DNA from: Thermoplasmatota archaeon
GTDB taxonomy: Archaea > Thermoplasmatota > E2 > DHVEG-1
Length of the DNA stretch: 64,000 nt
Reading direction: 5' to 3'
NCBI GenBank assembly: GCA_025457885.1
Contig: JALOTN010000001.1
Coordinates: 2,822-66,821 of the forward strand
Of this stretch, positions 46,974 through 55,583 are shown piece by piece (the stretch's first letter is position 1; each line of letters starts with the position of its first letter). A program made the translations under genes and the position numbers. Under the pieces are notes generated by a model. The model was not told the origin of the DNA and did not search any database. It saw nothing but the letters and a program-made list of their open reading frames with translations.

Positions 46974-47330
46974 TTATTCTATATTCAATCCGTTCAGCCG
47001 TTTTTTTAATTCAGTATAGACTACTTGTTTCTTCTTGGAGGTTAGGTGAAAGAGTGTTTTAGAAATCATGGCTGCTGAGATGGTGAAGATATAGTTTAAT
47101 TTAATCACGCTGTCCTGTATTGCGCCCTCTTCTTTCGAAAGTGGGATTCCTTTCATCTTCGTATTGCTTGTTATTCCTGCGACAACAATGTTATCGAATT
47201 CTTCGAAGAGAATAAGAGCAGGTCTTTTTTTAATTTCGAACGTATCGGTGAACTGTACCTGGGCAAGAACGACATCGCCGGGTCTACGCATCATTCCACG
47301 CCTCGTCTTCCTTATTGTCCCAAAGCTCAT
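46974..47330 (-). CDS. type II toxin, PemK/MazF-like endoribonuclease
   Basis: ...RRPGDVVLAQVQFTD...KKRPALIL...NIVVAGITSN... fits the MazF/PemK SH3-like core. The true start is probably the internal MMRRPGD. Confidence 0.55.
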   Translation of the reverse strand: MSFGTIRKTRRGMMRRPGDVVLAQVQFTDTFEIKKRPALILFEEFDNIVVAGITSNTKMKGIPLSKEEGAIQDSVIKLNYIFTISAAMISKTLFHLTSKKKQVVYTELKKRLNGLNIE

Positions 47331-47511
47331 TCATCTTGGGTTGTTGTATCTTATGCAAGAACTCGTCGTACTGGTTTCTTTTCTTGAGATTTCTGATGAT
47401 TTCGATCATGTGTACGATCAGTTCATTATAGGTCTGTCGTGGATACTCCTTGTTTTTTTTCAGGGATTCAACTACGGATTTATCCAATTGAATCGTTGTC
47501 ACCTTGCTCAC
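47284..47511 (-). CDS. antitoxin, ribbon-helix-helix-like
   Basis: 75 aa upstream of and overlapping the toxin gene. N-terminal beta-strand TTIQLDKSVVESLKK followed by helices. Confidence 0.45.
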   Translation of the reverse strand: MSKVTTIQLDKSVVESLKKNKEYPRQTYNELIVHMIEIIRNLKKRNQYDEFLHKIQQPKMNELWDNKEDEAWNDA

Positions 47512-47583
47512 TATATATCACCTATAGTTACTATATAGAACATTATATATAAAGATTTTGTCAAAGTCCAACATAAAAGTAGC

Positions 47584-47657
47584 GGACGTGGCGGGATTCG
47601 AACCCGCGGTTACCGACTTAGAAGGCCGGTGCCTTATCCAGGCTAGGCCACACGCCC
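47584..47657 (-). tRNA. tRNA-Arg (anticodon TCT)
   Basis: Cloverleaf folded by hand: acceptor GGGCGUG/CACGUCC (one G-U), D-stem GCCU/AGGC, anticodon stem CCGGC/GUCGG with loop CUUCUAA, T-arm GCGGG-UUCGAAU-CCCGC, discriminator G. CCA not encoded. Confidence 0.75.
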
Positions 47658-47668
47658 AAAGAGAGTAG

Positions 47669-47756
47669 CGCTGAGGGGGAGATTCGAACTCCCGCTCCCC
47701 TTGCGGAGAACCGGCTCTCAAGGCCGGCGCGGTGGACCGAGCTTTGCTACCTCAGC
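47669..47756 (-). tRNA. tRNA-Ser (anticodon TGA), type II with long variable arm
   Basis: Acceptor GCUGAGG/CCUCAGC. Anticodon stem CCGGC/GCCGG with loop CUUGAGA. Variable arm CUCC-GCAAGG-GGAG. T-arm GGGAG-UUCGAAU-CUCCC. G73. Confidence 0.7.
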
Positions 47757-53614: not shown

Positions 53615-54475
53615 ATGAAAAGAAACATAAAAATTAGCATATGCATCATTTCACTAATCTGTGCTGCTGTTTTGATCACTCCGGTGAGTGCTGTTGGATT
53701 CAACAGACTTTCTGCAACGTCCGAAACCACCAAGCCCCAACAAACAATGCAATCACAATACTGGGCATTATTATTCGCGGTCGGCACCTACGAGGGAAAT
53801 CCAGATCAGGATCGCCCATCGATGCTGGACGCCTGTGACGCTTTATATGACACCCTTCTGGATTCACCACAAAACTGGCAGGCAAGCAACATCCATGTCC
53901 AAAAAGGTGGACAATGTTATCTTCAGAATTTGATAAAAGAATTACTCTGGCTTCGGAAAAACTCCCGTAGTGAGGACTATGTGTTCATCTACCTAACCAC
54001 TCATGGGTTCTATCTGACAAAAAGCAATGGCGCTTTATGGGACCTCCCACCCAAGGACGAGCCAGATGGGACTGATGAATTTCTCTTCATGTACAATGGA
54101 TTTAGTACATCCTATGGTATCATCTGGGATGACCTGTTGAATTTCTTCGTCAGCATCATCCGATGCAAAGGCCTCTGCCTTGTGGTTGACAGCTGTTATA
54201 GTGGAGGGTTTAATGATATGCCACTACCAAGCTCCAACCAACTACGGTTCACCGCGATGTCCAGCCAAGAAAACGAGGTCTCCTATGGATCTACCTTCTC
54301 AGAATGGTTCATCAGCGGTTTAGCCGGATGGGGTGATTTCGGAGGGAATGGCGATGGTATTAACTCTGCGGAGGAAGCATACACCTGGGCTGAATTCTGG
54401 GTGAATCTCGGTGGCGAACAACACCCGACATACGTCGACTTATACGGCGGGGAAATGCCCCTCACCTATACCTAA
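53615..54475 (+). CDS. secreted legumain-like (clan CD, C13/C14-like) cysteine peptidase
   Basis: Signal peptide ISICIISLICAAVLITPVSA. VFIYLTTHGF (hydrophobic strand + His-Gly) and LCLVVDSCYSGGF (hydrophobic strand + D-x-C), about 65 aa apart, as in the legumain/caspase catalytic dyad. Confidence 0.6.
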   Translation: MKRNIKISICIISLICAAVLITPVSAVGFNRLSATSETTKPQQTMQSQYWALLFAVGTYEGNPDQDRPSMLDACDALYDTLLDSPQNWQASNIHVQKGGQCYLQNLIKELLWLRKNSRSEDYVFIYLTTHGFYLTKSNGALWDLPPKDEPDGTDEFLFMYNGFSTSYGIIWDDLLNFFVSIIRCKGLCLVVDSCYSGGFNDMPLPSSNQLRFTAMSSQENEVSYGSTFSEWFISGLAGWGDFGGNGDGINSAEEAYTWAEFWVNLGGEQHPTYVDLYGGEMPLTYT

Positions 54476-54572
54476 GAAAAAAAGAATACCTTCCGATTCG
54501 CTGGTACTGAAACATTTAAAAAGCAATAGAAATTCTGGTTACGCTACACACAAAGACAGTGTTCTCCCTATT

Positions 54573-54605
54573 GGGCTCGTGGTCTAGTTGGTTAAGATGA
54601 AGCCC
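54573..54605 (+). other. tRNA 5'-half-like fragment (acceptor stem + D-arm + start of anticodon stem), not a complete tRNA
   Basis: GGGCUCGUGGUCUAGUUGGUUAAGAUGAAGCCC. The first 26 nt have the canonical tRNA 5' layout (7-bp acceptor strand, U8, D-stem GUCU/AGAU, D-loop AGUUGGUUA). No matching anticodon 3' strand, T-arm or acceptor 3' strand within 300 nt on either strand. Confidence 0.4.
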
Positions 54606-54817
54606 ATATCTCTGCGCTAATCGCCGAGAAAATCGGCGAGTATCTCAGCGATATTTTCCTACGGACTCTTTCTCTTCTTATTTTTTAGTTAGAAAATAAC
54701 GAACAAGAGTGACTAATAAACGACAGGGCCGTTTATTCATGGCACGAGTGCCATTTCATGGGTGAGTGAGATTTAAATTATCCGTTGAACATACGTTCAA
54801 CTAATCGGGAGAAAATC

Positions 54818-55498
54818 ATGAATTCTGACAAAAAATATTACGATGAAAAACTTTCAGCGAATAAACTAAAAAGCTGTTACGAAATCGCCCCTCCTCGTAT
54901 CCTGCAATATCTTGAAGCTGAAGTGAATCACGTTCTTCAAAAAATCAATCCGGGCGATTCCGTTCTGGAACTTGGCTGCGGTTATGGGCGAATATTGCCG
55001 CAACTGGCCCAAAAAGCGGATATTGTAGTAGGCATTGATACGTCCCTTCAAAGCCTGGCTCTGGCCAAAGAAACGATTCAAGACTTTCAGAACTGTTACT
55101 TGGTGGGAATGGACGCTATCCAGCTTGCATTCGCCAATCAAATATTCGATGTCGTCGTCTGCATCCAAAACGGCATCTCGGCGTTTCACGTAGATAAGGC
55201 AGATTTGATAAGGGAAAGCATTCGTGTAACAAAACCAGGCGGAATCGTACTCTTTTCAAGCTATTCAGGCAAGTTTTGGCCTCACCGGCTGCACTGGTTC
55301 CAATTACAGTCAGACGCAGGGTTAATCGGGGAGATAGACTCTGAAAAAACCAGGGACGGAGTCATCGTCTGTAAAGATGGATTTACTGCGACAACTGTCA
55401 GTAAAAAACAATTCAAAACGTTAACACAAAGATTCAATGTAAAAACAAATATCGTCGAAGTGGATGAATCAAGTCTTTTTTGTGAGATTCATCCTTGA
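54818..55498 (+). CDS. class I SAM-dependent methyltransferase (type 11 domain)
   Basis: VLELGCGYGRILPQLA (motif I), VVGIDTS (motif II), PGGIVLFS (post-III). ATG at 54818 with GGGAG 8 nt upstream. The track ORF starts at a TTG inside a palindrome. Confidence 0.7.
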   Translation: MNSDKKYYDEKLSANKLKSCYEIAPPRILQYLEAEVNHVLQKINPGDSVLELGCGYGRILPQLAQKADIVVGIDTSLQSLALAKETIQDFQNCYLVGMDAIQLAFANQIFDVVVCIQNGISAFHVDKADLIRESIRVTKPGGIVLFSSYSGKFWPHRLHWFQLQSDAGLIGEIDSEKTRDGVIVCKDGFTATTVSKKQFKTLTQRFNVKTNIVEVDESSLFCEIHP

Positions 55499-55583
55499 TT
55501 AACAGTTACTAATATTTCCCCACGGACACTTTCTCTCTATTCTTTTTCTCCCTAATATCCAATCCAGCTAGTTTATTCTACTT

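Follow-up and report, generated by a model that had tools for sequence, protein, structure and literature searches.

Several types of mobile elements that integrate into tRNA genes have been described. Elements with pNOB8-type integrases as well as bacterial tRNA-targeting islands and ICEs carry an intact int gene, use a tRNA gene as attB, and present direct repeats and an intact tRNA gene at one end, with the crossover located mostly in the anticodon loop, the T-loop or the 3' end (Williams 2002 classes, as given in PMC8371274). Archaeal tyrosine recombinases of the SSV type also integrate into tRNA genes; in these systems attP is part of the int ORF, which is split on integration (PMC7253208). 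For pTN3-like integrases, represented by pTN3 and TKV4 of the Thermococcales, the tRNA gene's 5' half serves as attB and expression of the restored tRNA is driven by the integrase promoter (PMC8371274); a 2021 review presented targeting of the tRNA 5' end as a property that only pTN3-like integrases show among archaea. A 5' tRNA fragment, a recombinase-coding insertion and an intact tRNA gene have also been reported for tRNA-Thr(GGU) of Caldiarchaeum subterraneum (Sugahara et al. 2012, PMC3293823).

We analyzed a tRNA 5' fragment (i.e., the stub) located in a 64,000-nt stretch of DNA (i.e., the window) from an uncultured member of the Thermoplasmata. We consider it probable (approx. 80%) that this stub represents the attL of an approx. 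49-kb plasmid-like element, which integrated by site-specific recombination at the extreme 5' end of a tRNA-Val(GAC) gene. An att-site remnant of a tRNA-targeting element was among the explanations offered in a previous sequence-only reading of the window, and it is the one favored by the intact tRNA gene, the direct repeat, the integrase gene at the far end and the empty sites in relatives described below.

The closest analogues of the locus are pTN3 and TKV4, with which it shares several features, i.e., an attB within the tRNA gene's 5' part, restoration of an uninterrupted tRNA gene (PMC8371274, PMC5495485), an integrase gene that reads towards the restored tRNA, which would then depend on a promoter of the element or of the integrase gene, and a 5' tRNA fragment left together with the native promoter at the other end. 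On the other hand, lineage and target are different (Thermoplasmatota and tRNA-Val(GAC) here, Thermococcales and tRNA-Leu there), and the block of identity is 22-23 bp as compared to 41 bp, with a 43-bp minimal site, in pTN3 (PMC5495485). The integrase itself (int338) has 338 aa, with XerA as the nearest solved relative, whereas the catalytic Tyr of IntpTN3 is residue 428 (PMC5495485); as judged by protein size and nearest relatives, int338 appears unlikely to be a member of the pTN3 integrase family. The order of 5' tRNA fragment, recombinase-coding insertion and intact tRNA gene is shared with C. subterraneum, as is the co-existence of several alleles of the locus in a natural population (PMC3293823); however, the insertion in that organism is transposon-like, with a length of 1.8 kb, and its tRNA gained introns, while the insertion described here is approx. 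49 kb, plasmid-like and associated with a tRNA without intron. In most pNOB8-type elements, tRNA-targeting islands and ICEs, the duplicated segment is the 3' part of the tRNA; here it is the 5' end, with displacement of the native promoter. Finally, in contrast to the split gene of SSV-type elements, int338 is intact and is located 53 nt outside the core; a suicidal integrase element of the SSV type was rejected, as int338 is full length and wholly outside the repeat. Overall, integration into tRNA genes is a known phenomenon, to which the locus appears to add new instances with respect to lineage, target tRNA, short core and integrase.

The stub had been described as a 33-mer, GGGCTCGTGGTCTAGTTGGTTAAGATGAAGCCC, which is present at positions 54573-54605 as a single copy in the window. 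The first ~26 nt of this 33-mer had been considered a canonical tRNA 5' part. Alignments revealed that positions 54573-54594 are the exact first 22 nt of tRNA-Val(GAC) in relatives, comprising the acceptor 5' strand, U8, G9, the D-stem 5' strand and the D-loop; the description is thus correct for 22 nt but not beyond, and a length of 26-33 nt is an overestimate. After nucleotide 22, the intact gene reads TGACGTCTCCC while the window reads AGATGAAGCCC. The latter bases, which are foreign, provide the apparent D-stem 3' strand and the closing helix of the 33-mer, such that the AGAT strand of the proposed 4-bp D-stem is not part of a tRNA and the pairing of AAGCCC back to GGGCU (a GGGCU/AGCCC closing helix) uses foreign bases. 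Alignments of two related loci to the window (L020, which carries the intact gene in a very close relative, 98% identical over 887 nt, and L003, 100% identical over 1,011 nt) both stop exactly at 54594. Moreover, when the 100 nt past the break were compared to the rest of the tRNA and its downstream flank, the local score was 15, as compared to a mean of 15.0 for shuffled sequences.

At position 54573, neither ARAGORN nor Rfam, whether run at the gathering score or at E ≤ 10, identified a tRNA. A cloverleaf at the stub, which the sequence-only reading had named as an alternative outcome, was thus recovered by neither program: with regard to RF00005 membership, no complete cloverleaf scored above the threshold and only 22 nt of the tRNA remain. 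In agreement with the sequence-only reading, no tRNA 3' half was found near the stub, and the only tRNAs that ARAGORN identified in the window were tRNA-Arg and tRNA-Ser (47582-47756). The region of the stub did not fold better than shuffled sequences (z = -1.7) and the Rfam signals represented sub-threshold noise only; we thus rejected the interpretation of the spacer as a structured RNA. The three hairpins previously listed for the spacer are all present, although the coordinates of two were off by one base: TCGCCGA-GAAAA-TCGGCGA (54621-54639) is located in the element arm at 54595-54694, while GGCACGAGTGCC (54741-54752) and GTTGAAC-ATAC-GTTCAAC (54784-54801) are located in the conserved 5' region of a methyltransferase cassette.

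The lack of a cloverleaf would also fit a decayed tRNA pseudogene or a chance resemblance to a tRNA, as would the zero matches obtained when 185,579 species genomes were scanned for an exact 26-mer and an exact 20-mer from the stub. These scans were empty, however, because both patterns held foreign bases after position 22. Conversely, the 22-mer and its 60-nt upstream flank are identical or nearly so to those of intact alleles, the drop in similarity is abrupt rather than gradual, and the flanks are 98-100% identical to intact alleles. These data are not consistent with a decayed tRNA gene, and we regard decay or coincidence as very improbable.

The left flank of the stub is chromosomal. A caspase/C13-like gene (53615..54475, + strand; Pfam) represents the conserved left flank of the tRNA-Val locus, and its orthologues are located directly upstream of tRNA-Val in five related loci (L007, L010, L012, L020 and L034); the flanking genes in the window also include an aEF-1alpha type elongation factor and phosphoglucomutases, and these genes, together with the names of their homologues, assign the window to an uncultured member of the Thermoplasmata/Thermoplasmatota. 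In L007 and L012 the order is caspase-like gene, a conserved 100-nt spacer, an intact tRNA-Val(GAC) with the sequence GGGCTCGTGGTCTAGTTGGTTATGACGTCTCCCTGACACGGAGGAGGTCTTGAGTTCGAATCTCAACGAGCCCA, Band_7, a small gene, MatE and GAF. The window shares with these two loci the spacer, including the BRE/TATA-like sequence GAAACATTTAAAAAG (at about 54509-54523), as well as the first 22 nt of the tRNA, and then diverges. The region at 54503..54548 (+ strand), which contains this BRE/TATA-like sequence, is nearly invariant among the window, the empty sites of L007 and L012 and the attL of L010, and is absent upstream of the tRNA copies restored by elements. Its position and conservation suggest that this region is the native tRNA-Val promoter, and we refer to it as the putative promoter. 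Elsewhere in the window, a PemK-like toxin gene and a small DUF7557 partner adjoin the tRNA-Ser(TGA)/tRNA-Arg(TCT) pair (46974-47756); only the tRNA-Ser was detected at the corresponding locus end in some relatives (L007-L012).

As the element runs far past the window, its full extent is invisible from the window alone. The window region is 100% identical to a JGI metagenome contig (3300037461 Ga0392394_0000139; 74,630 bp) that reaches 52 kb past the right end of the window, and proteins of the window are also encoded, together with the right-flank Band_7 protein MCU0849748.1, on a 112,495-bp NCBI MAG contig, which carries the proteins MCU0849717 to MCU0849748. We used a composite of the window and four further sequences (L006, L101, L102 and L098), which showed zero mismatches in the overlaps and in which the only unseen stretch is 1,594 nt inside a single 2,041-aa gene. 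Coordinates beyond 64,000 are window-equivalent positions and refer to sequence outside the window.

An intact copy of the tRNA represented by the stub, for which the sequence-only reading had recommended a search, is present on the same contig. This tRNA-Val(GAC) gene (103580-103654, + strand; ARAGORN; Rfam, 65.6 bits) has no intron and is preceded by a foreign flank, while its downstream flank is native and is followed by Band_7 (103717-104652, - strand), the right chromosomal flank. A direct repeat delimiting the insertion was also found, i.e., an exact 22-mer (23 nt if the preceding T is counted) at 54573-54594 and at 103580-103601; no other copy of the 22-mer and no other tRNA-Val piece occur in the 104-kb composite. 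When the composite was compared to L020, L007 and L012, each aligned in two blocks, the first reaching 54597 and the second beginning at 103579, with the core as the only overlap. The empty site thus consists of the left flank, the tRNA and the right flank, sharing the 22-23-nt repeat, and the insertion comprises positions 54595-103579 (48,985 bp). A chimeric assembly is unlikely, as the junction at the stub (22|AGATG) is identical in an independent Logan assembly (L005; SRR12684589). The DNA gyrase B gene in the right flank (L098 1000-4215, outside the window) carries an intein, with PF14890 located between the GyrB domains.

The far end of the element also bears on the suggestion that the stub is the 5' half of a split tRNA, joined in trans to a separate 3' half as in Nanoarchaeum equitans. 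Mobile-element integration was suggested as one way in which tRNA genes become fragmented (PMC3293823), and the putative native promoter still precedes the stub. However, an intact tRNA-Val(GAC) is located 49 kb away on the same contig, no isolated 3' half was found in the 104 kb, sibling strains carry an uninterrupted gene at the locus, and the sequence downstream of the stub shows no significant structure (z = -1.7, as above). Furthermore, the break is at position 21/22, which is not known as a site of tRNA splitting (known sites include 37/38 and others). The intact gene, the break position and the uninterrupted sibling alleles refute a split-tRNA half, and we give this reading next to no weight.

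Under our preferred reading, i.e., integration of a 49-kb element at the tRNA 5' end, the first 22-23 nt of the tRNA gene would also have been present in attP of the element. Recombination in the shared core would have joined the native promoter and tRNA nucleotides 1-22 to element DNA, generating the stub, while at the other end, 48,985 bp away, the copy of nucleotides 1-22 from the element would have been joined to the native remainder, restoring an intact tRNA gene. The layout can be written as A-O-P' ... P-O-B, with O representing tRNA nucleotides 1-22, and would be the expected product of recombination between attP and the chromosomal gene. The crossover itself would have occurred within the 22-23 bp core. 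As replacement of the 5' end leaves the native promoter with the stub, the restored tRNA would rely on transcription from the element; by analogy with pTN3-like integrases (PMC8371274), it would be transcribed from the integrase gene or from an element promoter. The orphaned putative promoter, on the other hand, may still fire into the element.

The sequence-only reading had further suggested that an integrase gene be sought nearby, and such a gene was found at the far end of the element. The gene for int338, a tyrosine integrase (102510-103526, + strand, i.e., the same strand as the tRNA; L102 18309-19325), reads towards the intact tRNA-Val, with its stop located 53 nt before the tRNA. The protein covers profile positions 2-170 of the 172 positions of PF00589 and matches XerA (5HXY; E = 1.6e-14), its closest solved relative, with Arg I, Lys, His/Trp and the catalytic Tyr aligned; generic plasmid recombinases are only 24-26% identical. 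Where XerA and most tyrosine recombinases show H-x-x-R, int338 shows Y-x-x-K. Recombinase activity of int338 is thus putative, and int338 would be the enzyme that catalyzed integration. No relatives of int338 or of the TraG-like protein of the element were found in viral or provirus contigs, and the junction pattern was absent from these contigs as well; neither a circular or excised form nor an independent attP was identified.

We reconstructed attP by joining the two element arms across the core (...CATCGCCAT-GGGCTCGTGGTCTAGTTGGTTA-AGATGAAGCCCATATC...). The reconstructed site shows a perfect 7-bp inverted repeat, ATGGGCT(N23)AGCCCAT, that brackets the core. When the arms were shuffled, such a repeat was observed at that position in 27 of 2000 shuffles and, if the position was left free, in 219 of 2000; the inverted repeat is thus suggestive but, given the weak statistic, not conclusive as a feature of the att site. 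As read from these arms, the 33-mer at the stub would essentially correspond to the inverted-repeat site in its attL hybrid form.

The attL itself consists of the core copy (54573..54594, + strand; 22 nt, representing tRNA-Val(GAC) positions 1-21 in standard numbering), which is shared by attP and attB, and the element arm P' (54595..54694, + strand). This arm is a 100-nt orphan segment that starts with AGATGAAGCCC and contains T-runs in addition to the hairpin at 54621-54639; it showed no similarity to the remaining tRNA or to any other fetched locus. The window holds the left 9.4 kb of the element (54595..64000), while the rest extends to window-equivalent position 103,579. The previous placement of the stub at the border of a compositionally atypical region was confirmed, as the GC content of the element is 41.5% as compared to 46-47% in the flanks, with internal blocks that range from 35% to 53%.

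Directly after the arm, a methyltransferase gene (54818-55498) is located within a cassette at 54695..55547 (+ strand) that includes a 123-nt upstream region with the palindrome ATGGCAC..GTGCCAT and its own TATA-like box. The cassette shows 80% nucleotide identity over 860 nt to sequences from another Thermoplasmatota MAG (L095/L096), where it adjoins a DUF87/TrwB ATPase and DDE/rve transposases. Relatives of the methyltransferase protein with 65-85% identity were found in Bathyarchaeota, Promethearchaeota, WOR-3, Aminicenantes, Zixibacteria and others. Sequence comparisons thus indicate that the methyltransferase gene, together with its upstream region, behaves as a mobile cassette. The cassette is followed by cargo genes for a NosD-like secreted protein and a 210-aa membrane protein (55584..57275, - strand). 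The membrane protein is 58% identical to a protein of the L010 element, and the NosD-like protein has a relative inside the L034 element; both of these smaller elements are also located at tRNA-Val. A further gene of the element within the window (57440-63124) encodes a giant secreted protein of 1,894 aa with PKD domains; the part of this gene that encodes the C-terminal portion is a block of 50% GC within DNA of 30-39% GC.

Beyond the window, the element encodes a TraG/VirD4-like ATPase (69594-71429), an initiator of the Orc1/Cdc6 family (76655-77737; L101 4871-5953) that matches TIGR02928 at 230 bits, above the NCBIfam cutoff, and a second giant secreted protein of 2,041 aa with M28 peptidase, PKD and NosD/beta-helix domains (81483-87608). 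A defence-like CTD8 and MC2 gene pair is followed by the gene for a 639-aa protein (L101 6453-7995); this trio recurs in an unrelated defence-island context (L093), and the best homologue of the 639-aa protein (P0121) is located in an unrelated defence island. An nSTAND NTPase (L102 7559-9949) is located beside a truncated tyrosine integrase, int336 (90637-91647, - strand; L102 6436-7446), which covers only positions 3-144 of the 172 positions of PF00589, ends before the region of the catalytic Tyr and is probably a remnant of another element. Between 94.2 and 103.5 kb, a co-directional module encodes a HerA/VirB4-like DUF87 ATPase, a Prok-JAB protein, a histone-fold protein and int338. A search of the element for viral hallmark genes gave none, and it is best described as a mosaic, plasmid-like integrated element that is possibly conjugative.

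A survey of the locus, performed as a metagenome scan with Band_7, revealed that tRNA-Val is also occupied by other elements. Small elements (approx. 5 kb), whose integrase is a different one, leave 5' stubs of 39 nt (L010, L008 and L003) or 3' fragments of 44 nt (L013, L018, L027, L034 and L038), and all of their junctions at tRNA-Val fall in the anticodon loop. Two of these elements are located at L010 6960-11918 and L034 4987-10500, while those in L013, L018, L027 and L038 are located next to Band_7. The integrases of the small elements are related (66% identity), yet they duplicate opposite parts of the tRNA (nucleotides 1-39 and 31-74, respectively), such that the portion of this one gene that is restored by related small elements is the 5' one in some cases and the 3' one in others. 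We also considered the L010 integrase as a partitioned gene of the SSV type, given an 80-aa ORF that reads into the tRNA, but rejected this interpretation as the related integrases of L013 and L034 start beside the core and look complete. Overall, the tRNA-Val locus is a landing pad for at least three unrelated integrase types.

Different alleles of the locus were also found within what appears to be a single population. In sample 3300081805, the same strain-level population, with caspase-like and Band_7 proteins identical to those of the window, carries a small element and not the 49-kb island (L003/L100). Among the Logan contigs of SRR12684589, breaks occur at the repeat, with one contig ending at tRNA nucleotide 22 (L002), one starting 8 nt before the tRNA (L005) and one ending at nucleotide 18 (L099). 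This assembly behavior suggests that occupied and alternative alleles co-exist in one sample.

Among about 40 copies and fragments of tRNA-Val surveyed, the junction in the window is the only one at position 22. This raises the alternative that the identity at the 5' end was originally longer (e.g., ~40 nt) and that attL was later cut by a deletion or insertion inside the island; the stub would then still mark the border of the island, but the break at 22/23 would be a rearrangement scar rather than the edge of the att core. The 39-nt stubs left by L010-type elements at the same site would fit such a history, and a core of 22-23 bp is short as compared to pTN3 (PMC5495485). In addition, the island is a mosaic with GC contents of 35-53% by block, and holds a second, truncated integrase (int336), and only 100 nt separate its mobile methyltransferase cassette from the junction. 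On the other hand, the arm beside the restored tRNA shows no relationship to that of L010-type elements, and int338 directly adjoins it. The sequence after the break, moreover, completes the 7-bp inverted repeat, which would be unexpected for an arbitrary deletion endpoint (27/2000 shuffles), and the 100-nt orphan segment matches nothing else. We consider such secondary truncation unlikely, though it retains more weight than decay or a split tRNA. A pure deletion scar, considered because all other junctions fall in the anticodon loop, was downgraded by the intact tRNA, the adjacent int338 and the exact repeat.

Integration by int338 at the 5' end of tRNA-Val, our preferred reading, can also be compared to a more distant relative. 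In L090 (1795-3238), 41 nt separate the end of an int338 homologue (41% identity), which has the same upstream neighbor (108 aa) and is located next to Band_7, from the 5' end of the tRNA-Gly(CCC) downstream; this represents the same geometry at another tRNA. No 5' stub of tRNA-Gly was found in roughly 9 kb of the 17,147-bp L090 contig (Ga0172362_10002139). The arm upstream of this tRNA-Gly holds two copies of a direct repeat, GCTATGAACATGT.

It is tempting to hypothesize that int338 and its relative in L090 represent a Thermoplasmatota integrase family that is unrelated in sequence to pTN3-like integrases and in which targeting of the 22-23 bp at the very 5' end of tRNA genes arose independently; we offer this hypothesis tentatively and with some doubt. 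In such a family, integration would displace the native promoter and leave an essential tRNA dependent on transcription from the element, while the orphan promoter with the stub would read into the element, where it could direct transcription of the first genes, e.g., those of the methyltransferase cassette. The 33-mer would then essentially be the hybrid core site (TGGGCT...AGCCCA).

On the basis of these data, an unusual tRNA-like fragment becomes a marker that precisely delimits a 49-kb mobile element in an uncultured member of the Thermoplasmata. For genome annotation, they indicate that a lone tRNA 5' stub that retains an intact tRNA promoter predicts an island border well, and that an intact copy should be looked for before a 5' stub is called a split tRNA gene. 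If true, a second lineage with tRNA 5'-end targeting would widen the picture drawn in the 2021 review, and the locus described here would represent a natural case of an essential tRNA re-wired to the promoter of a mobile element.
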